From NCBI RefSeq assembly GCF_058153355.1, contig NZ_CM177019.1: DNA of 64,000 bases. One strand, 5' to 3'. Below are positions 16,123 through 31,912 of the stretch, piece by piece (positions within the stretch are counted from its first letter, which is position 1; each line of letters starts with the position of its first letter). Position numbers and translations under genes: made by a program. The notes beneath the pieces are model-generated. The model saw only the letters and a list, made by a program, of their open reading frames with translations, ran no database searches and was not told the origin of the DNA.

Positions 16123-16207
<85 letters not shown>

Positions 16208-16215
16208 GGACTTGA

Positions 16216-16291
<76 letters not shown>

Positions 16292-16652
16292 ATCAAGTAG
16301 CGCGCATTCTATGGAGACATGCGAGTTCATGCAACTAAAAAATTGCATAATTTGTTTTATTGGTCACATTTTATGCGACACGATGAAGAAACAGTCGAAC
16401 AGAGGGCAAATTAGCACACTTTTTCAACATCATTGTTCTCAACAATGCGCTCCTTCTAAAGCGCAATTCTTTTTATCAGATGGAATATCTGTCACATTGC
16501 TTTTCAACGATAGCTTCCCGGGAGAGATTTTTTCTTATTATTCCTCCCCATCTGGTGTTACCCTCCTGCCCATTAACCCATTCAACAGAACTGTGACGCG
16601 CCATGGCAAATATCGTTTTGCCGATAGAGCTATGACCGCCAGAAACATGCTT

Positions 16653-17603
16653 ATGAGTATAAAAGAGCAAACGTTAATGACGCCTTACCTACAGTTTGAC
16701 CGCAACCAGTGGGCAGCTCTGCGTGATTCCGTACCTATGACGTTATCGGAAGATGAGATCGCCCGTCTCAAAGGTATTAATGAAGATCTCTCGTTAGAAG
16801 AAGTGGCCGAGATCTATTTACCTCTGTCACGTTTGCTGAACTTCTATATAAGCTCGAATCTGCGCCGTCAGGCAGTTCTGGAACAGTTTCTTGGTACCAA
16901 CGGGCAACGCATTCCTTACATTATCAGTATCGCAGGTAGCGTCGCGGTGGGGAAAAGTACAACCGCCCGTGTATTGCAGGCACTATTAAGCCGTTGGCCG
17001 GAGCATCGTCGTGTTGAGCTGATCACTACAGATGGCTTCCTTCACCCTAATCAGGTGCTGAAAGAACGTGGTCTGATGAAGAAGAAAGGCTTCCCGGAAT
17101 CGTATGATATGCATCGCCTGGTGAAGTTTGTTTCCGATCTCAAATCCGGCGTGCCAAACGTTACGGCACCTGTTTACTCGCATCTTATTTATGATGTGAT
17201 CCCGGATGGAGACAAAACTGTTGTTCAGCCTGATATTTTAATTCTTGAAGGGTTAAATGTCTTACAGAGCGGGATGGATTATCCTCACGATCCACATCAT
17301 GTATTTGTTTCTGATTTTGTCGATTTTTCGATATATGTTGATGCACCAGAAGACTTACTTCAAACGTGGTATATCAACCGTTTCCTGAAATTCCGTGAAG
17401 GGGCTTTTACAGACCCGGATTCCTATTTTCATAACTACGCGAAATTAACTAAAGAAGAAGCGATTAACACTGCCATGACATTGTGGAAAGAGATCAACTG
17501 GCTGAACTTAAAGCAAAATATTCTACCTACTCGTGAGCGCGCCAGTTTAATCCTGACAAAGAGTGCTAATCACGCGGTAGAAGAGGTCAGACTACGCAAA
17601 TAA
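16653..17603 (+). CDS. coaA: pantothenate kinase (type I); start at [12 protein letters not shown], six-frame ORF is a 5' read-through extension
   Basis: 316-aa CoaA sequence with Walker [10 protein letters not shown]. Confidence 0.95.
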
Positions 17604-17612
17604 TTTAAAGGG

Positions 17613-17624
17613 GAGCTAATGCTC
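17613..17624. repeat. 12-bp target-site duplication GAGCTAATGCTC (left copy) flanking IS4
   Basis: Identical 12-mer at 19051-19062 directly abutting the other IS end. Confidence 0.9.
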
Positions 17625-19050
17625 TAATGCCGATCAGTTAAGGATCAGTTGACCGATCCAGTGGCTGTGTAAGAATCCGGAAACGCTCACTTGTTTCCGG
17701 ATTTTTTTATGCACATTGGACAGGCTCTTGATCTGGTATCCCGTTACGATTCTCTGCGTAACCCACTGACTTCTCTGGGGGATTACCTCGACCCCGAACT
17801 CATCTCTCGTTGCCTTGCCGAATCAGGTACTGTAACGCTACGCAAGCGCCGTCTTCCCCTCGAAATGATGGTCTGGTGTATTGTTGGCATGGCGCTTGAG
17901 CGTAAAGAACCTCTTCACCAGATTGTGAATCGCCTGGACATCATGCTGCCGGGCAATCGCCCCTTCGTTGCCCCCAGTGCCGTTATTCAGGCCCGCCAGC
18001 GCCTGGGAAGTGAGGCTGTCCGCCGCGTGTTCACGAAAACAGCGCAGCTCTGGCATAACGCCACGCCGCATCCGCACTGGTGCGGCCTGACCCTGCTGGC
18101 CATCGATGGTGTGTTCTGGCGCACACCGGATACACCAGAGAACGATGCAGCCTTCCCCCGCCAGACACATGCCGGGAACCCGGCGCTCTACCCGCAGGTC
18201 AAAATGGTCTGCCAGATGGAACTGACCAGCCATCTGCTGACGGCTGCAGCCTTCGGCACGATGAAGAACAGCGAAAATGAGCTTGCTGAGCAACTTATAG
18301 AACAAACCGGCGATAACACTCTGACGTTAATGGATAAAGGTTATTACTCACTGGGACTGTTAAATGCCTGGAGCCTGGCGGGAGAACACCGCCACTGGAT
18401 GATACCTCTCAGAAAGGGAGCGCAATATGAAGAGATCAGAAAACTGGGTAAAGGCGATCATCTGGTGAAGCTGAAAACCAGCCCGCAGGCACGAAAAAAG
18501 TGGCCGGGACTGGGAAATGAAGTGACAGCCCGCCTGCTGACCGTGACGCGCAAAGGAAAAGTCTGCCATCTGCTGACGTCGATGACGGACGCCATGCGCT
18601 TCCCCGGAGGAGAAATGGCGGATCTGTACAGTCATCGCTGGGAAATCGAACTGGGATACAGGGAGATAAAACAGACGATGCAACTGAGCAGGCTGACGCT
18701 GAGAAGTAAAAAGCCGGAGCTTGTGGAGCAAGAGCTGTGGGGTGTCTTACTGGCTTATAATCTGGTGAGATATCAGATGATTAAAATGGCGGAACATCTG
18801 AAAGGTTACTGGCCGAATCAACTGAGTTTCTCAGAATCATGCGGAATGGTGATGAGAATGCTGATGACATTGCAGGGCGCTTCACCGGGACGTATACCGG
18901 AGCTGATGCGCGATCTTGCAAGTATGGGACAACTTGTGAAATTACCGACAAGAAGGGAAAGGGCCTTCCCGAGAGTGGTAAAGGAGAGGCCCTGGAAATA
19001 CCCCACAGCCCCGAAAAAGAGCCAGTCAGTTGCTTAACTGACTGGCATTA
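17625..19050 (+). mobile_element. IS4: IS4 insertion sequence, complete (1426 bp, imperfect 18-bp terminal inverted repeats TAATGCCGATCAGTTAAG / TAATGCCAGTCAGTTAAG)
   Basis: Length, terminal IRs, flanking 12-bp direct repeat and an intact IS4-type transposase ORF. Confidence 0.93.
17709..19037 (+). CDS. insG: IS4 transposase (start at [10 protein letters not shown])
   Basis: 442-aa ORF matching IS4 transposase, DDE-type. Confidence 0.92.
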
Positions 19051-19062
19051 GAGCTAATGCTC
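19051..19062. repeat. 12-bp target-site duplication GAGCTAATGCTC (right copy)
   Basis: Direct repeat of 17613-17624. Confidence 0.9.
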
Positions 19063-19069
19063 CCCTTTC

Positions 19070-20035
19070 TTATTTTTCTGCACTACGCAGGGATATTTCA
19101 CCGCCCATCCAGGGTTTTATTATTCCATCCTGCTCAAGCAATAAAGCGCCTTGTTTGTCTATTCCGCGTGAAATGCCAAATATTTCTTTATCACCAATGA
19201 TAAGTTTCACTGGGCGATTAATAAAATTATCCAGTTTTTCCCAGCGCGACAGATAAGGTGCCAATCCTTCTTGCTCGAAGAGTTCCAGCGCCGCACGTAA
19301 TTCACGTATTAGCATGGCCGCCAACGCATTACGATCGAGATTGATCCCAGCTTCCTGAAGCGTGATCCACCCCTGATTAACGATATTCTCTTCAACACGA
19401 CGCATTGCCATGTTGATCCCGGCACCAATGACTATTTGCGCCGCATCGCCGGTTTTGCCAGTCAGCTCCACAAGAATACCTGCCAGCTTGCGATCCTGCA
19501 GATAGAGGTCATTCGGCCATTTAACACGAACTTTATCAGCGCCCAACTTGCGTAATACTTCCGCCATCACGATACCGATAACCAGACTTAAACCAATCGC
19601 CGCAGCCGGGCCTTGTTCCAGACGCCAGAACATCGACAAATATAAGTTTGCGCCAAAAGGTGAAAACCATTTCCGACCTCGGCGACCACGTCCTGCCTGC
19701 TGGTATTCAGCAACGCAGGCATCACCCGATTTAAGCTCTCCGATACGATCAAGAAGATACTGATTCGTGGAGTCAATAACGGGCAGCACGGCTACACTAC
19801 CGCTATCCAGCTGACTCAATATCTGTTCAGCATTAAGTAACTGGATGGGCTCAGGCAGGCTGTATCCTTTACCCGGAACGGTAAAGACATCAACGCCCCA
19901 GTCACGCAGTGTTTGAATATGTTTATTAATGGCCGCCCGGCTCATTCCTAACGTTTCACCCAGCTGCTCACCAGAGTGAAATTCGCCATTCGCTAATAGC
20001 GTGATTAATTTTAGCGGAACGGTATTATCCTTCAT
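19070..20035 (-). CDS. birA: bifunctional biotin-[acetyl-CoA-carboxylase] ligase and biotin operon repressor
   Basis: 321-aa [53 protein letters not shown]... Confidence 0.96.
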
Positions 20036-21060
20036 GAAATCGTCTCCACTGCGCTAACTTCACCTGATGTACCAATAAAGCGAACTTCTGGCTCAAGCCA
20101 GACATTAAATTTTTCACCCACTTTCTGTCTTACATGATGTGCCAGCTGCACAATATCTTCGCTTTTTGCATTGCCTTCATTAATGAGAACTAACGCCTGT
20201 TGACGGTGTACCGCAGCCCCACCAATTTGTGTTCCTTTTAGCTGGCACTGATCGATAAGCCAACCAGCGGCCAGTTTTACTGAACCATCCGTCTGGGGAT
20301 AATTTGGTGCTGTTGGAAATTGTGCCAGTAATGCTTTAGCCGTTTCGGCAGATACAACAGGGTTTTTGAAGAAACTACCGGCATTGCCATTCACTTTTGG
20401 ATCAGGGAGTTTGGTGGTGCGCATATGACACACCGCATCAAATACTTGCTGTGGCGTTACGGTTGTAGGATCCAGACGAGTTAAGTCACCATACGTTAGT
20501 ACAGGTTGCCACTCTTTTGGCAGGCGCAGACCTACGGCTACAATGGCGAAGCGGTCCTGGTATTCATGTTTAAAAATACTGTCGCGATAGCCAAAACGGC
20601 ACTCTTTGGCAGTTAAGCGCACTTGCTTGCCTGTCGCCAGTTCGACACAGTCAACATAAGCGCAAACTCGCTGTAATTCTACGCCATAAGCACCAATATT
20701 CTGGATAGGTGATGAGCCGACACAACCAGGAATTAACGCCAGATTTTCCAGACCTGGCATACCTTCCTGCAAAGTGTATTTTACCAGTCGATGCCAGTTT
20801 TCTCCGGCTCCTACATGTAAATACCACGCATCAGGTTCATCATGAATTTCGATACCTTTGATCCGGTTGATGATCACCGTGCCGCGATAGTCTTCCAGAA
20901 AAAGTACATTACTTCCTTCACCCAGAATAAGAACGGGTTGCCCTTCTGCGGTTGCATGCTGCCAGGCATTGAGTAGTTGTTGTTCGTCTTCGGCACATAC
21001 AATGTGCTGAGCATTATGATCAATGCCAAATGTGTTCCAGGGTTTTAAGGAGTGGTTCAT
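20032..21060 (-). CDS. murB: UDP-N-acetylenolpyruvoylglucosamine reductase
   Basis: 342-aa ORF; 4-bp overlap with birA. Confidence 0.96.
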
Positions 21061-21149
21061 AGCTGCTTTCCTGATGCAAAAACGAGGCTAGTTTACCGTA
21101 TCTGTGGGGGGATGGCTTGTAGTTATGACGACAGGGAGAGTTTGTAGAA

Positions 21150-21180
21150 ACGCAAAAAGGCCCAGTCTTCCGACTGGGCC
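21150..21180 (-). terminator. rrnB operon terminator (hairpin GGCCCAGTC-GGAA-GACTGGGCC followed by TTTTTGCG)
   Basis: Stem-loop plus U-run 15 nt downstream of 5S rRNA 3' end. Confidence 0.8.
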
Positions 21181-21194
21181 TTCTGCTTAATTTG

Positions 21195-21314
21195 ATGCCT
21201 GGCAGTTCCCTACTCTCGCATGGGGAGACCCCACACTACCATCGGCGCTACGGCGTTTCACTTCTGAGTTCGGCATGGGGTCAGGTGGGACCACCGCGCT
21301 AAGGCCGCCAGGCA
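21195..21314 (-). rRNA. rrfB: 5S ribosomal RNA
   Basis: 120 nt; reverse complement starts TGCCTGGCGGCC...and ends ...GGGAACTGCCAGGCAT. Confidence 0.95.
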
Positions 21315-21500
21315 AATTCCTGTGCTCTGTCCTGTGTCTTTTGTGCTGATACTGCGTTGGCTGCATTCGCGAAAATCAGTCACATACTTCAGTATGCTCC
21401 TTCCTTCGCTTCATTTGCCGCCTTGTCTCAGCGCAAAATCCTTCGGACTCTGGATCCAAGCTGAAATTCTCTCAATCCGCCAAAACACCTTCGGCGTTGT

Positions 21501-24665: not shown

Positions 24666-24836
24666 ACGAAAATTGCTTATCACGCGCTGCGTGATATTTT
24701 CGTGTAGGGTGAGCTTTCATTAATAGAAAGCGAACGGCCTTATTCTCTTCAGCCTCACTCCCAACGCGTAAACGCCTTGCTATTCACTTTTCATCAGACA
24801 ATCTGTGTGAGCACTGCAAAGAACAGTTCTTTAAGG

Positions 24837-26378
<1,542 letters not shown>

Positions 26379-26549
26379 AAAAGTTTGATGCTCAAAGAAT
26401 TAAACTTCGTAATGAATTACGTGTTCACTCTTGAGACTTGGTATTCATTTTTCGTCTTGCGACGTTAAGAATCCGTATCTTCGAGTGCCCACACAGATTG
26501 TCTGATAAATTGTTAAAGAGCAGTGCCGCTTCGCTTTTTCTCAGCGGCG

Positions 26550-26730
26550 CGGGGTGTGCATAATACGCTTTCCCGCTACAGAGTCAAGCATTTTTTTGCT
26601 TTTCTCTGTTGAGATTCTCAGGAGAACCCCGCTGACCCGGCGGCGTGTTTGCCGTTGTTCCGTGTCAGTGGTGGCGCATTATAGGGAGTTATTCCGGCCT
26701 GACAAGAGGAAATTTAAAATAATTTTCCAA
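26550..26730 (-). promoter_or_regulatory. rrnB tandem promoters P1 and P2 with UP element (P1 -35 TTGTCA / -10 TATAAT; P2 -35 TTGACT / -10 TATTAT)
   Basis: Sequence matches the classical rrnB P1/P2 region (…CTCTTGTCAGGCCGGAATAACTCCCTATAATGCGCCACCACT… and …TTGACTCTGTAGCGGGAAAGCGTATTATGC…). Confidence 0.85.
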
Positions 26731-26750
26731 CCGCGCAACATTCAACCAAA

Positions 26751-27608
26751 TCAGTCTAAAACTGCCAGTTTTTCGAGCGTTTCGAAGCCGTAGCGCTGTA
26801 AAACGGGCAATAATTGTTCAGCTTCTGGCGTCATTGCCATACAAAAGGCAATATTCGCATCGGCGGATTTTGCATCCGGGGCTTCATGTTCTAACAACCA
26901 GGCCGTTCGGCGAGCAATCGCTGCGCCAGAATCCACCAGCCGTGTTCCCTCTGGCAGCACTTGTAACAGTTCTTCTTGTAGTAGAGGGAAGTGGGTACAC
27001 CCCAGAACAACGGTATCTGGTGGCTCTTTCATTCTTAACCACGGGCGCAAGATACGCTTTAGTGCATCCAGAGAAACATCTTCGCCATGCAGCTTCGCTT
27101 CAGCCAACTCAACCATCTCTGCCGAGCCCAGCATTTCTATCTGGCATTCATTAGCGAAACGCGCGATCAGCTCATGAGTATAAGAACGTTTAACTGTTCC
27201 GCGGGTTGCCAGTAATCCGACAATGCCATTTGCCGTCAGACGTGCAGCAGGTTTAATCGCCGGCACGACTCCAACAACCGGGAAGTCGAACTTTTCGCGT
27301 AAGGCAGGAAGTGAAACGGTACTGGCAGTGTTGCAAGCGACCACAGCCAACGCAAGGGGATAACGCTCTTGTACCGCAGTGACAATTTCCACCACTCGCT
27401 CAACAATAAACTCTTCGCTTTTTTCGCCATAAGGGAAAGCGACGTTATCGAAAGCATAAATGTAATGGAGATCCGGCAAGAGATGCCGGATCTCGTCATA
27501 GACCGACAACCCACCGACGCCGGAGTCAAACACCAGCACGGTGGGACGTGGTTCAGAAGGTGTAGCTGCCAGACAAGGTGTATTCCCGTCCTGCAGTTTG
27601 GTAGCCAT
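26751..27608 (-). CDS. murI: glutamate racemase (start at MATKLQDG)
   Basis: 285-aa MurI; 3' overlap with btuB as in K-12. Confidence 0.93.
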
Positions 27609-29397
27609 AGACTGTCTCATAATCTTTGTCGAACAGGTTGGCTATTTTACCACGAACTGTCAGGTGAGAGGTGACCGGATACGCAACCGCAAGATCCCAC
27701 AAGCTCACACCGCCCATTTTAACGGTTTGATAAGGATAAGATGAGTAATCCTTATCATAGCGAGTGCCTAAATACTGATAAGTAATACCCCAGTCGAAGT
27801 CATACAACTGCCAGTCGAGCTGGTATTTCACCTGCTGTTTAGCACGGCGTAACAACGGCGTGTCGGTAATTGCATTGCGCGCATCGACATAATCATAACT
27901 CACAGTATGCGTCAGTGGTCCGGTATCAAAATTGGCGGTCGCCTCAACGCCCTTAATTCGCGCTTTCCCTTCGTTATAGTATTTCAGGGTGTGATCATCG
28001 TAATCGATCAAGTCACTGACATCGTTACGATATCCAGAAATACGCCAGTTCACCCCAGCGGTTAAGCCTTCAAACGCGCCTTCCCACTGTTTGCTTTTCT
28101 CAGGTTCCAGATTTGGATTTCCGTAGAAGCCATACAGTTGTCCAAGATTTGGTGCCTTATAAGATGTCCCGTAGGAAGCAATGAAGCGATAGCCTTCGAT
28201 GAATTCCCAACCAGCGCTGGTTTGCCAGGTTCCATGACGACCAAACTGTGAGTTATCGTCGCTGCGTGCTGCGCCTTCAAAGGTAAAATCGCCGACTTGT
28301 TGCAGCCCGGTCAGATAGATGCCGGTATTACGTTGATCATATCCATCCTCAACATAACCTGTACCCGGCGTCGTAGTCTGTTTCTGCCAGTCGACACCCG
28401 CACCAATACTACCGTGACCAACGATGACATTGTTTGCCCACTGGACGGTGTATTGCTTCATCTCATCGAGCGTCGCCGACGAATCATAACGACCATAATG
28501 GGGATCGTAGTTGTAATCTTTGCTATGGCTATAGCTGGTAATGAGTTGTGATTTAATCAGTTCGCCGTTATAGCGCAGCCCGGCGTCCCAACTTTGGCTA
28601 TAGAGTTTACGGGTATCGACCAGTGGCGAGCCGGGAGAATAATATGCGTCATAATTGGTACGATTATCATAGCCATAGCCGCGCACAAAGCCGCTCCAGA
28701 CATCAGTAAAGTTATGCTCCAGCGCACCATAAAGCGTTTTACTTAAAAAACCATCGTTATCTGTCTGCGCTTGCGTTCCGGTATTACCATAGGCAACAAC
28801 ATCATAACCATGAGTATGGGCATAATCGCCCAACAGCGTTACCCGTGTCTTATCTCCCAGTTGTTGCTGTGTAGAAACATCATAGTTCTGATAGCTATTG
28901 CTTCCCCACCCTGCTGAAATTTCCGTTCCGGGTTGATCGCGCGTCGTGATGATATTCACGACCCCACCTATTGCATCGGAACCATAAACAGCGGAGCGCG
29001 GCCCACGGATATATTCAACACGCTGGACAAGCGCAATAGGGAACTGGCTAAGGTCGGCAGAACCACTCACCCCCGCCAGATTCAGGCGTACGCCATCAAT
29101 TAACACCAACACATGACTGGCATTTGTACCGCGAATAAAAATAGAAGAGAGTTGACCTGAACCGCCGTTTTGGGTGATATCGACACCCGGAAGACGGCGC
29201 AGCACATCATTGACCGAGGTCGACTGCCAGCGGTCGATATCCTGACGCGTCACAACGGTGGTTGGTGCAAGCACAGTGCTGCGCGGCTGTTCAAAACGGT
29301 TAGCAGTAACGACGAGAGTATCCGGGCTGGTATCCTGTGCCCAAGCGGAAAAGGCTGTGACAGAACACGCCGTCAGCAGCGAAGCTTTTTTAATCAT
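27553..29397 (-). CDS. btuB: TonB-dependent vitamin B12 outer-membrane transporter (start at [12 protein letters not shown])
   Basis: 614-aa BtuB with signal peptide and TonB box (DTLVVTANR). Confidence 0.95.
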
Positions 29398-29640
29398 TGT
29401 AAAGCATCCACAATAGAAGAAGGATGCCGCAGGCTTCATCAATATTACGCGATGATGAGAACCAGATGCGACGTTAGCCGGCAGGTCTTCGGGCTTGGAG
29501 GGGTATATAAAATACTAAGAGATGATGACTTCCCACCGGATGGCAGTGTCCGCATAACGCAATCATCGCACCTTTCCTTACCGCTGCGCGTCAGCTCCAG
29601 ATTTGCACTGGATTCCCTATTAACTCACAGGACCGGCGAG
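29398..29640 (-). promoter_or_regulatory. btuB 5' leader containing adenosylcobalamin riboswitch
   Basis: Approx 240-nt untranslated leader; reverse complement contains GCCGGTCCTGTGAGTTAATAGGGAATCCAGTGCAAATCTGGAGCTGACGCGCAGCGGTAAGGAAAGGTGCGATGATTGCGTTATGCGGACACTGCCATCCGGTGGGAAGTCATCATCTC, recognised as the btuB B12 element. Confidence 0.85.
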
Positions 29641-29765
29641 TGGATGCTACAGGTTGTAACAAGTTGCTGTCCAGACGTAGCTCACAAATAGGAATACATC
29701 AAGATCTGGACATCTGATGAGCAATCCCTACAATCGCCGCGTACATTTCATTTTCAGGATACATC

Positions 29766-30866
29766 ATGACCCCCGAACACCTTCCAACAGAACAGTATGA
29801 AGCGCAGTTAGCCGAAAAAGTGGTACGTTTGCAAAGTATGATGGCGCCGTTTTCTGACCTGGTTCCGGAAGTGTTTCGCTCGCCGGTCAGTCATTACCGG
29901 ATGCGTGCGGAGTTCCGCATCTGGCACGATGGCGATGACCTGTACCACATCATTTTCGATCAACAAACCAAAAGCCGTATCCGCGTGGATAGCTTCCCCG
30001 CCGCCAGTGAACTTATCAACCAGTTGATGACGGCGATGATTGCGGGTGTGCGTAATAATCCCGTTCTGCGCCACAAGCTATTCCAGATTGATTACCTCAC
30101 TACGCTGAGTAATCAGGCGGTGGTTTCCCTGCTGTACCATAAAAAGCTAGATGATGAGTGGCGTCAGGAAGCGGAAGCCCTGCGCGATGCACTGCGAGTG
30201 CAGAATCTGAATGTGCATCTGATTGGTCGGGCAACGAAAACCAAAATCGCGCTGGATCAAGATTACATCGACGAACGTCTGCCGGTCGCAGGGAAAGAGA
30301 TGATCTACCGTCAGGTAGAAAACAGCTTTACCCAGCCGAACGCGGCGATGAATATTCAGATGCTGGAATGGGCGCTGGACGTCACCAAAGGCTCAAAAGG
30401 CGATTTACTGGAGCTGTACTGCGGCAACGGTAACTTCTCATTAGCCCTGGCGCGCAATTTTGATCGGGTATTAGCCACCGAAATCGCCAAGCCTTCGGTC
30501 GCTGCCGCGCAATACAACATTGCCGCTAACCATATTGATAACGTCCAAATTATTCGTATGGCGGCAGAAGAATTTACTCAGGCGATGAATGGTGTGCGCG
30601 AATTTAATCGCCTGCAAGGGATCGACTTAAAGAGTTATCAGTGCGAAACCATTTTTGTCGACCCACCGCGCAGCGGTCTGGACAGTGAAACCGAGAAAAT
30701 GGTGCAGGCGTATCCACGTATTCTGTATATCTCCTGCAATCCGGAAACGTTATGCAAGAATCTGGAAACATTAAGCCAGACGCACAAGGTTGAACGTCTG
30801 GCTCTGTTTGATCAGTTCCCCTACACGCACCATATGGAGTGCGGCGTATTACTGACCGCGAAGTAA
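29766..30866 (+). CDS. trmA: tRNA (uracil54-C5)-methyltransferase
   Basis: 366-aa [22 protein letters not shown]... Confidence 0.95.
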
Positions 30867-30869
30867 AAC

Positions 30870-30900
30870 CTATGCCGGATGCGCCAGCATCCGGCATGAT
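30870..30900 (+). terminator. trmA terminator / REP-like palindrome (TGCCGGATGCGCCAGCATCCGGCA)
   Basis: Perfect inverted repeat just after trmA stop. Confidence 0.6.
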
Positions 30901-30905
30901 ACCGA

Positions 30906-31265
30906 TTACTCAGCAACTTCCTGCTTACGGTTACGCATCTTCGCGCCAATCCAGAACACCATAATGACGGACAGTACTGCCGGGAAGAAGTTAGAGCCGA
31001 TATCCGGATATTCCGCACGAACTACCGTGCTGTACAGCAGTACGCCGAGAATAAAACAAGCAGCAGCCAGACCCGGCAAGCCTACCGGCATAGTGCGATT
31101 AAGATAACGTTGATGCAGGCAGTAAACTGTCAGCACCAGGGAAATAATCGGGAATACAGAAAATGGCACAATGGAGCTAAACAGCGCTGCGAAAGTACCA
31201 TTAATCGATAAGCCAGCCACCAGCGCCAGCAGCAGCGTACCTCTATCTTGATTTGCTTGTTTCAT
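30906..31265 (-). CDS. yijD: inner-membrane protein YijD (DUF1422)
   Basis: 119-aa hydrophobic ORF co-oriented downstream of fabR. Confidence 0.9.
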
Positions 31266-31912
31266 TACTCGTCCTTCACATTTCCCGGAATAATTGCGGT
31301 TTTCTCTTGTTCACGGCGATACCAGTAATAAGCCCCTTTCGAAATCATTCGCAGTTGCAGTACCAGTCGCTCTTCTAATTGCCGACGTTGTTCGACGCCG
31401 ACGTCCAACGCCTCGGCACCCGCACTGAAGACAATCGTCACCATGGCTTCGGCTTGCGCTTCAGTAAACGCACGCGGCATATGGTTTTCGAGTTCCAGAT
31501 AGTCCGCAAGTTCCGCAATGAAGTGCTGAATTTCACGCGCAACGGCGGCACGAAACGCAGCGGAGGTGCCGGAGCGTTCCCGCAATAATAACCGGAAGGC
31601 GTTAGGATTATTACCGATGAACTCCATAAATGTGGAGACCGAGGTGCGGATCACACTCCCGCCTTTGGCGATACGCTGACGCGCCTGGCGCATGAGTTGG
31701 CGTAGCATTAAACCGCTCTCATCAACCATGGTCAGACCCAGTTCGTCTACGTCGCGGAAATGCCGATAAAAAGAGGTGGGAGCAATGCCCGCTTCACGCG
31801 CCACTTCACGCAAACTCAGGCTGGCGAAGCTGCGTTCAGCACTTAATTGGCTAAATGCGGCTTCCACCAACGAACGGCGGGTTTTTTCTTTTTGTTGCGC
31901 TCTTACGCCCAT
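31265..31912 (-). CDS. fabR: TetR-family repressor of unsaturated fatty acid synthesis (start at [13 protein letters not shown]; an upstream in-frame ATG at 32008 is also possible)
   Basis: TetR HTH region ([25 protein letters not shown]). Confidence 0.88.

Follow-up and report, generated by a model that had tools for sequence, protein, structure and literature searches.

A classical insertion of IS4 lies in the attenuator terminator of pheST, and Mayaux et al. in 1984 reportedly gave AAA-N20-TTT as the target consensus of this element. Tn7 inserts at attTn7 in the glmS terminator region, guided by TnsD, a dedicated DNA-binding protein with specificity for the coding sequence of glmS. IS10 and IS50 resist activation by outside transcription; in read-through transcripts, a fold-back occludes the start of the transposase. 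The IS4 subgroup is characterised by the end signature -AATR and by a target-site duplication of 10-13 bp (PMC2266710), and IS4 is still active in K-12, with 8 new insertions in mutation-accumulation lines (PMC5009759). Here we describe an IS4 copy that sits in the hairpin between the convergent genes coaA and birA, in a 64-kb stretch of DNA (the window, i.e., the whole of the DNA that was analysed).

The element (Table 1) is IS4 itself, the ISfinder element of the IS4 family and IS4 subgroup. A preceding annotation made from the letters alone (the sequence-only reading) had called it a complete IS4 with an intact 442-aa transposase and a perfect 12-bp direct repeat, and all three points held. 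Nucleotide identity to the K-12 IS4 was 99.79%, and many E. coli IS4 copies are 99.9% identical to the one studied here. The length of 1426 bp, the identity to the K-12 copy (more than 95% being expected of an IS4), the imperfect 18-bp repeats, a duplication within the 10-13-bp range and the single DDE ORF all agree with IS4. Both ends begin with TAATGCC..., which is compatible with the subgroup signature -AATR. The duplication GAGCTAATGCTC is perfect, and the probability of finding a 12-mer at both exact element ends by chance is about 6e-8; other IS4 copies were flanked by duplications of 11, 12 and 13 bp. The transposase was identical at 448/448 positions to RefSeq WP_000483766.1 ('IS4-like element IS4 family transposase') and contained the Pfam domains Nterm_IS4 (E = 8e-33) and DDE_Tnp_1 (E = 1e-31), with its ATG at 17709, not 17710. 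Transposase ORF, inverted repeats and duplication are all intact. The K-12 copy (insG, NC_000913.3 4502090-4503515) has the same length of 1426 bp and the same inverted repeats as the window copy, encodes the same single DDE transposase of 442 aa and is likewise flanked by a duplication of 12 bp; it differs from the window copy by three bases and two amino acids. It lies elsewhere, near nanX, at a non-hairpin AAA-N20-TTT site with the duplication CAGAACCAAGAT. IS4 is multicopy in many strains, and a single E. coli genome may have it at as many as 24 places. In an Rfam scan that covered 15700-21400, tRNAs and 5S rRNA were the only matches, and none lay in or around IS4.

When the element and one repeat copy were removed, a 28-nt coaA/birA spacer, TTTAAAGGGGAGCTAATGCTCCCCTTTC, was restored. 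The sequence-only reading had equated this with the K-12 spacing, which is correct: annotated E. coli genomes, K-12 MG1655 among them, have a spacer of the same 28 nt. In sequence, however, the K-12 spacer, TTTGCAGGGGAGCGAATACTCCCCTTTC, differs at 4 positions. In a 60-nt context, the restored spacer folded on either strand into a GC-rich hairpin with a 10-bp stem and a 4-nt loop, at -21 to -22 kcal/mol (z = -6.1 and -5.4 vs shuffles), which lies 3 nt past the coaA stop and 1 nt past the birA stop. The U-tract 3' of the stem is good on the plus strand (UUUCUUAUUUUU) and weaker on the minus strand (UUUAAAUUAUUU), because U3 alone is contiguous there. Stem, loop and U-tracts suggest that the native hairpin would act as a transcription terminator; our literature search found no RNA 3'-end data for coaA/birA. 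As had been claimed, IS4 entered this hairpin between the convergent genes, exactly at its apex, and split it. The native hairpin is destroyed, and 5-bp GAGCU/AGCUC stems are the sole foldable remnants (z = -1.2 and -0.7). Both neighbouring products are common ones, the exact 316-aa CoaA being present in thousands of E. coli assemblies and the exact BirA in many.

Table 1. Features of the coaA-IS4-birA segment, in window coordinates
Feature	Position	Strand	Basis or detail
coaA (pantothenate kinase, 316 aa), intact	16653..17603, stop 17601-17603	+	ORF; annotated coaA in collinear strain
Split spacer, left part	17604..17624		TTT, AAA, left stem GGGGAGC, loop TAAT, start of right stem
Target-site duplication, left copy	17613..17624		GAGCTAATGCTC, 12 bp; small palindrome at hairpin apex
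IS4, complete, 1426 bp	17625..19050	+	3 mismatches, 0 indels vs annotated K-12 MG1655 IS4
IRL, 18 bp	17625..17642	+	TAATGCCGATCAGTTAAG
Sigma-70 promoter-like site, candidate transposase promoter	17649..17676	+	TTGACC, 16-nt spacer, TGnAAGAAT
Left IS4 hairpin, putative terminator	17671..17708 (hairpin 17671-17706)	+	Folding; 15 pairs, -18.8 kcal/mol, then T7/U7 up to ATG
Transposase gene (InsG type)	17709..19037	+	442 aa from ATG; RefSeq: 448 aa from TTG 17691
Right IS4 hairpin, putative terminator	19013..19046 (hairpin 19046-19021)	-	Perfect stem of 11 bp with AAGC loop; -18.7 kcal/mol, then TCTTTTTC
IRR, 18 bp	19033..19050	-	Reverse complement TAATGCCAGTCAGTTAAG; 16/18 identical to IRL
Target-site duplication, right copy	19051..19062		GAGCTAATGCTC, 12 bp
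Split spacer, remainder	19063..19069		CCCTTTC; end of right stem and start of T-tract
birA (biotin ligase/repressor, 321 aa), intact	19070..20035, stop 19070-19072	-	ORF; annotated in collinear strain

The preference of IS4 for terminator-like palindromes had been missed in the sequence-only reading. We assembled 65 distinct IS4 left flanks from 104 occurrences, a set whose members are partly dependent: a single Kosakonia genome contributed 16 of them, and a few sites are orthologous or have a target in common. The favoured target across these 65 sites was a GC-rich palindrome between an A-run and a T-run, and the hairpin loop formed the centre of the duplication. Position -18 was A in 89% of the sites, and AAA occurred within -20..-13 in 52/65, vs 10.8% of control positions (p = 2e-38). 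The ends of the duplication were palindromic over 4 bp at 17/65 sites vs 1.5% (p = 9e-17), and a long ORF ended no more than 60 nt upstream at 23/62 sites vs 6% (p = 4e-13). Of the 10 distinct targets that could be fully reconstructed, 9 folded into hairpins (-10 to -19 kcal/mol) whose loop carried the duplication. IS4 targeted the same hairpins in both orientations, and relatives at 89% and 74% identity showed the same target behaviour. Annotated examples are the convergent pair tynA/feaB and the 3' ends of adhE and of bamD (the latter in IAI39 and B2-type strains). There, too, the centre of the 11-13-bp duplication is the loop of a hairpin that consists of an A-run, a GC stem and a T-run and closely follows a gene. 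The coaA/birA site differs from these in that both of its neighbours are essential and the hairpin is common to both.

We then scored the coaA/birA site with a weight matrix trained on the other 64 sites, the coaA/birA site being excluded. The observed register and duplication length were the best for the spacer, with a two-arm score of 14.9 vs a window background of -19.6 +/- 8.4, and the site ranked as the third-best distinct one of 62,442 positions in the 64-kb window. The spacer allele mattered as well. Common E. coli alleles scored 7-8 and the K-12 allele 2.7; in the window allele, TTTAAAGGGG...CCCCTTT, each arm bears the consensus AAA, whereas a single arm does so in the common and K-12 alleles (TTTGCA/TTTTCA). 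The landing of IS4 in the coaA/birA hairpin is therefore not by chance, and terminator-like palindromes are its preferred target. The resident K-12 site forms no hairpin, so that what IS4 recognises may be the symmetry of the sequence, AAA...TTT, and not the fold.

Near each of its ends, IS4 carries an inward-facing hairpin of its own. The right one (z = -5.4), with the U-run UCUUUUUC, was flagged as terminator-like by a consensus terminator scanner. The left one (z = -5.8) received no flag, probably because its A-tract pairs with its U-tract, and folding was used instead. In a comparison of three sequences, the left hairpin, its U-run and the ATG were kept in a Klebsiella relative (89%) and in the Aeromonas element ISAeme15 (74%), and one pair showed a compensatory change from A-U to C-G; in the same comparison, the right hairpin was kept in the 89% relative and absent from ISAeme15. 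From sequence and fold, we suggest that the left hairpin serves as an inward-facing terminator, and as an occluder of the start site, for transcripts coming from coaA, and that the right one may terminate transcripts entering from birA. With inward hairpins at both ends, IS4 should make up for the terminator that was lost and protect its transposase gene. A literature search yielded no experimental tests of either hairpin.

A candidate promoter of the transposase gene overlaps the left hairpin. Sites of this kind occur at chance level (1 found vs 1.7 expected), and its -35 hexamer is kept in the relatives; the position of the promoter is accordingly given here as putative. The predicted transcription start, at about 17683-17685, falls within the left arm of the left hairpin. 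A native transposase transcript, if it starts from this site, would lack that arm and would remain unstructured.

In order to place the insertion among E. coli strains, complete genomes were searched with a 600-bp junction query. The occupied junction was found in 0/5426 complete E. coli genomes, and the empty site in 5420 of them, which bears on the question of strain specificity that the sequence-only reading had raised. In contrast, the bamD, tynA/feaB and adhE insertions are present in many genomes. The 33-mer across the junction, AAAGGGGAGCTAATGCTCTAATGCCGATCAGTT, had no exact match in metagenome contigs. Contexts of identical BirA, MurB and CoaA contained empty sites only, among the 24 longest-contig blocks per protein, a sample in which draft assemblies with short contigs that break at IS4 could go unnoticed. 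E. coli 2020CK-00188 matches the window collinearly at 98.5-99.7%, including both IS4 flanks, and the site is empty in the closest strain, which is 99.7% identical over 12.3 kb. Literature searches on the IS4 target consensus and on IS4 at coaA/birA gave no usable hit. The insertion is probably strain-specific and recent. Its recency had also been proposed in the sequence-only reading, and the absence of the junction elsewhere, the RefSeq-identical transposase and the continuing activity of IS4 in K-12 agree with it.

The same reading had gone further, to the view that both genes are left without a terminator and that coaA transcripts read through into the transposase gene. In its full form, this explanation holds that the insertion abolishes termination of both essential genes, that coaA read-through activates the transposase and that birA yields a long antisense RNA across IS4. 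It draws on the split of the native 10-bp hairpin, whose remnants are without significant stability, and on the missing scanner flag for the left IS4 hairpin. Against these points, hairpins of about -19 kcal/mol face inward from both ends, followed by U7 on the left and by the scanner-flagged U-run on the right. The left hairpin, moreover, adjoins the ATG, where it would occlude the weak GGA ribosome-binding site in read-through RNA, and it has been kept, with a compensatory change, in the 74% relative. IS10 and IS50, too, are built to resist activation by outside transcription. We conclude that the loss of termination was overstated, and we consider this explanation unlikely.

We further considered whether the insertion is adaptive, that is, selected through a change in coaA/birA expression such as altered 3' UTR stability or antisense transcription that runs from the transposase gene into birA. 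For the transposase transcript, the plus strand after 19046 offers no good terminator, with a 4-bp remnant hairpin and a T-rich stretch only, and therefore some antisense transcription into the 3' end of birA is conceivable. However, no second genome carries the insertion, neither among the complete E. coli genomes nor in the metagenome contigs or protein contexts that were read; the site shows no recurrence, and the weight matrix fully accounts for the position by the target preference of IS4. Selection was rejected on this non-recurrence and target preference, as highly improbable. An assembly artefact, in which a repeat-induced misjoin put an IS4 copy at coaA/birA, deserves thought with a multicopy element, as repeats are prone to misassembly. 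Yet a misjoin would not yield a perfect 12-bp duplication at the exact ends and in the matrix-best register, and the DNA on either side of IS4 follows the order of a close relative's genome. On duplication and register, we dismissed the artefact with near certainty.

Taken together, the data very probably reflect a genuine, recent IS4 transposition into the coaA/birA hairpin, guided by target preference and bringing putative replacement terminators. In the mechanism that we propose, IS4 cuts symmetric A-run/GC-palindrome/T-run targets with a stagger of 11-13 bp around the dyad, and the duplication thereby becomes the hairpin apex. Intrinsic terminators, and above all bidirectional ones, are the commonest genomic sequences of this shape. 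Most likely, coaA transcripts now end about 100 nt past the stop codon and birA transcripts about 55 nt past theirs, in both cases inside IS4. The two ORFs remain intact, and the transposase gene would still be shielded from coaA read-through, provided that the native and the IS4-borne hairpins terminate as their folds predict. A broader reading, which we put forward tentatively and rate at slightly below an even chance, is that elements of the IS4 subgroup are 'terminator seekers': the transposase would read the A-run/GC-palindrome/T-run symmetry typical of intrinsic terminators and cut evenly to either side of the loop, and since the element has a terminator pointing inward at each end, two one-way terminators would take the place of a single two-way one. 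In the lineage of the window, a GC-to-AA change in the spacer would have lengthened the stem and, at the same time, made a consensus IS4 hot spot. If this reading is true, the insertion would be nearly neutral even between two essential genes.

The element and its typical behaviour are already known, and what we describe is probably an ordinary, strain-specific IS4 insertion of low impact, because the site is typical for IS4 and the element brings its own terminator-like hairpins. As a textbook IS copy at a usual target, with both essential neighbours intact, it has little importance alone. It does provide a clean, resolved case of a mobile element that has settled between two essential genes by way of their common terminator and has probably supplied replacements. 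The junction may serve as a strain-specific marker, and the 65-site survey gives a usable model of the IS4 target, by which further terminators are predicted to be vulnerable, that of rpoC in the window being one example.

In comparison with known systems, IS4 is not alone in sparing genes by entering intergenic stem-loops, as IS1397, ISKpn1, IS621, ISPpu9/10 and ISRm22 (IS4 family) do so too (PMC1525189). Those palindrome-targeting elements use REP/BIME repeat families, whereas IS4 uses unique terminator-like palindromes with A/T runs and GC-rich arms. With regard to its left end, IS4 resembles IS10 and IS50, which have an inverted repeat near the left end that covers the region of transposase translation start; as in these elements, the predicted native transcript holds the distal arm only. 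IS4 differs from them in that its hairpin, with U7, has the form of a full intrinsic terminator, and in that the right end has another one, which also points inward. Finally, Tn7 at attTn7 in the glmS terminator also occupies a safe-haven site 3' of an essential gene and leaves the ORF undisrupted. The means of reaching such a site are different, however: in Tn7, TnsD reads the glmS coding sequence and leads to a single site, while IS4, with its transposase only, relies on a degenerate symmetric motif and has many sites.

The element between coaA and birA is, by its sequence, IS4 proper and no mere relative. It aligned without gaps to the annotated IS4 of K-12 MG1655 with only three substitutions, copies in many E. 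coli genomes were 99.9% identical to it, and its transposase, which carries the Pfam domains Nterm_IS4 and DDE_Tnp_1, matched RefSeq WP_000483766.1 at 448/448 residues. The sequence-only reading had described a 1426-bp element with IS4-type ends and an intact 442-aa transposase, flanked by a perfect 12-bp repeat, and all of this was borne out (see table). After in silico deletion of the element and one repeat copy, we obtained the spacer TTTAAAGGGGAGCTAATGCTCCCCTTTC, which at 28 nt has the K-12 length, as had been claimed, and differs from the K-12 sequence at four positions. In agreement with the proposed hairpin, both strands of this spacer folded into a 10-bp stem capped by a 4-nt loop (with 60 nt of context, -21.1 and -21.8 kcal/mol; z-scores, -6.1 and -5.4).

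Features of the IS4 insertion between coaA and birA (window coordinates)
Feature	Position	Strand	Description
Target-site duplication, 12-mer GAGCTAATGCTC	17613-17624 and 19051-19062		two copies; repeat finding and scripted check of ends
IS4	17625-19050		exactly 1426 bp, enclosed by the two 12-mer copies
IS4 ends TAATGCCGATCAGTTAAG / CTTAACTGACTGGCATTA			inverted repeats, 16/18 match
Transposase ORF	TTG 17691 or ATG 17709; stop end 19037		442 aa from ATG; 448 aa from TTG (RefSeq-annotated start)
coaA end	17603
birA end	19070	minus
IS4 left-end hairpin	17671-17706	plus	15 pairs, -18.8 kcal/mol, z = -5.8; seven U next
IS4 right-end hairpin	19046-19021	minus	perfect 11-bp stem, 4-nt loop, -18.7 kcal/mol, z = -5.4; then UCUUUUUC
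Promoter-like site	17649-17676		TTGACC, 16-nt spacer, TGnAAGAAT

The occupied left junction was found in 0/5426 complete E. coli genomes (600-bp query, coverage at least 80%), and the reconstructed empty site was present in 5420 of them. The exact junction 33-mer had no match in a metagenome contig collection, and the site was empty in all contexts listed for identical BirA, MurB, and CoaA proteins. It is also empty in the closest complete genome, strain 2020CK-00188 (99.68% identity over 12.3 kb leftward, 98.5% rightward), where the coaA/birA spacer is annotated at 28 nt. Since this strain is collinear with the remainder of the window, with no further large indels, IS4 is the sole insertion sequence in the 64 kb. 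Because the duplication is perfect and the insertion is rare across genomes, these comparisons indicate a recent, lineage- or strain-specific event; a recent insertion is what the sequence-only reading had suggested. IS4 is mobile in K-12, where a single copy gave eight new insertions in mutation-accumulation lines (PMC5009759). Elsewhere in the window, 24772-31362 (murI-btuB-trmA) showed 92.6% identity to 2020CK-00188, compared with 98.5-99.7% in flanking DNA, and this divergent patch around the btuB receptor gene has probably been recombined.

The best partial matches of the junction query ran 18 nt past IS4 into the flank, which gave the first clue to a target preference. IS4 lies downstream of bamD in IAI39 and many further strains, in the similar sequence AAAACGGCAGC-TCAAG-GCTGCCGTTTT, with a 13-bp duplication and the loop at its centre. 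IS4 left ends were further gathered from GTDB species representatives (sixteen Kosakonia oryziphila contig ends and one from Photorhabdus) and from metagenome contigs (83 loci), for a survey total of 104 occurrences, among which 65 left flanks were distinct. In these flanks A was enriched at -22 to -16, with a peak of 89% at -18, positions -15 to -9 were mostly C and G, and G was favoured at -4 and -1. AAA inside -20 to -13 occurred at 52/65 sites, against 10.8% of random same-locus positions (p = 2e-38); the duplicated segment had ends palindromic over 4 bp at 17/65 (against 1.5%, p = 9e-17); and at 23/62 the 60 nt upstream contained the end of a same-strand ORF of 100 codons or more (against 6%, p = 4e-13). 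Nine of the ten distinct fully reconstructed targets were hairpins (-10 to -19 kcal/mol) in which the duplication fell exactly on the loop, and the lone non-hairpin was the resident site of K-12, which keeps only an AAA...TTT symmetry. Annotated target examples included the convergent tynA/feaB pair and the adhE 3' end. Two hairpins, one of them at the 3' end of bamD, carry IS4 in both orientations in different samples (L001 versus L051; L056/L064 versus L043/L099), and such copies are independent insertions at one hot spot. Two related elements, one on a Klebsiella plasmid (89% identity) and ISAeme15 of Aeromonas (74%), likewise lie in such hairpins, with 12- and 13-bp duplications. The survey pattern agrees with the classical IS4 target consensus AAA-N20-TTT and with the pheST case, in which IS4 lies in the attenuator terminator.

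Several surveyed loci deserve separate mention. Four full-length copies (L102, L093, L105, L055) have two flanks without a common duplication, which suggests that IS4 copies have recombined with one another or that deletions arose next to them. In the draft genome of Kosakonia oryziphila REICA_142 (L004-L019), at least 16 contigs stop at an IS4 left end that agrees with E. coli IS4 in all of its first 30 bases; this implies that IS4 has recently been transferred beyond Escherichia and expanded there. A 265-bp contig assigned to Methylobacterium mesophilicum NBRC 15688 (L021, NZ_BPQU01000128.1) joins an IS4 left end to the exact K-12 resident-site flank, and contamination of that assembly by E. 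coli K-12 is the likeliest explanation.

A weight matrix trained on the 64 other sites, with the coaA/birA site excluded, had its optimum for this spacer at the observed register and 12-bp stagger. The two-arm score was 14.9 against a window background of -19.6 +/- 8.4, the third-best distinct site among 62,442 window positions; the top site, the rpoC-distal terminator at about 2054-2090 (AAAAAAACCCGCCGAAGCGGGTTTTT, score 20.6), is unoccupied. At least four spacer alleles occur in E. coli (TTTAAA..TAATG.., TTTGCA..TAATG.., TTTTCA..TAATG.., TTTGCA..GAATA..; L003, L022-L027, L112-L131). Scores are 7-8 for the commoner ones (TTTGCA..., TTTTCA...) and 2.7 for the K-12 allele, whose stem is shortened by loop-proximal changes. 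Since these alleles have no left-arm AAA and only 8/5101 complete genomes match the window's 100-nt allele at 99% identity or more, a lineage-specific change that lengthened the spacer stem appears also to have created a consensus IS4 target. We infer that this change may help to account for the absence of the insertion elsewhere. Among the spacer contexts, L119 (GCA_044522465.1) has a birA-end T-run 1 nt shorter at about 2121-2134 (TTATTTTCTGC), shifting the frame so that BirA is called as 326 aa running into the hairpin; a sequencing error in the homopolymer may be the cause. In five others (L135, L136, L138, L140, L143), BirA is 320 aa long and the spacer to coaA is 31 nt, versus 321 aa and 28 nt.

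The claim that both genes lose their intrinsic terminator stood only in part. The native hairpin is destroyed, and its 5-bp remnants fold alone without significant stability (z = -1.2, -0.7); the termination function, however, is probably kept, as IS4 itself brings in a pair of inward-facing hairpins. On the best reading of these predicted structures, coaA transcripts would now end inside IS4 about 100 nt past their stop codon and birA transcripts about 55 nt past theirs, which would limit read-through into the transposase gene. A consensus scanner flagged the right-end hairpin as terminator-like and did not flag the left-end one, probably due to pairing of its A-tract with the U-tract. The left U-run stops one base short of the transposase ATG, and the layout of left hairpin, U-run, and ATG is kept in both the 89% and 74% relatives, with one compensatory pair (A-U to C-G) in ISAeme15; the right-end hairpin is kept only in the 89% relative. 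The promoter-like site, of a kind found once against 1.7 expected and hence at chance level, weakly points to a transposase transcription start at about 17683-17685, inside the left hairpin arm. A native transposase mRNA begun there would not contain the hairpin, and the region around its ATG would be unstructured (predicted -3.3 kcal/mol, z = +1.3). Because the plus strand after 19046 has no good terminator, there is a residual possibility of transposase transcripts extending, as antisense RNA, into the 3' end of birA.

In summary, the insertion is an instance of an already known phenomenon; what had been seen in the sequence was confirmed and its interpretation partly supported. The target behaviour of the element matches descriptions for IS4 and the IS4 subgroup, and several IS families use insertion into intergenic palindromes as a strategy (PMC1525189). 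Specific to this case are the coaA/birA locus, without record in 5426 genomes, and a lineage spacer allele that is a much better IS4 target than that of K-12. The 65-site survey and the inward-facing IS4 hairpins usefully clarify the picture and do not amount to a new kind of system. The left hairpin with the predicted transposase start resembles the layout by which IS10 and IS50 guard against activation by outside transcription. Tn7 at glmS is the paradigm of insertion beside the terminator of an essential gene, and IS4 has here inserted in a likewise placed position.
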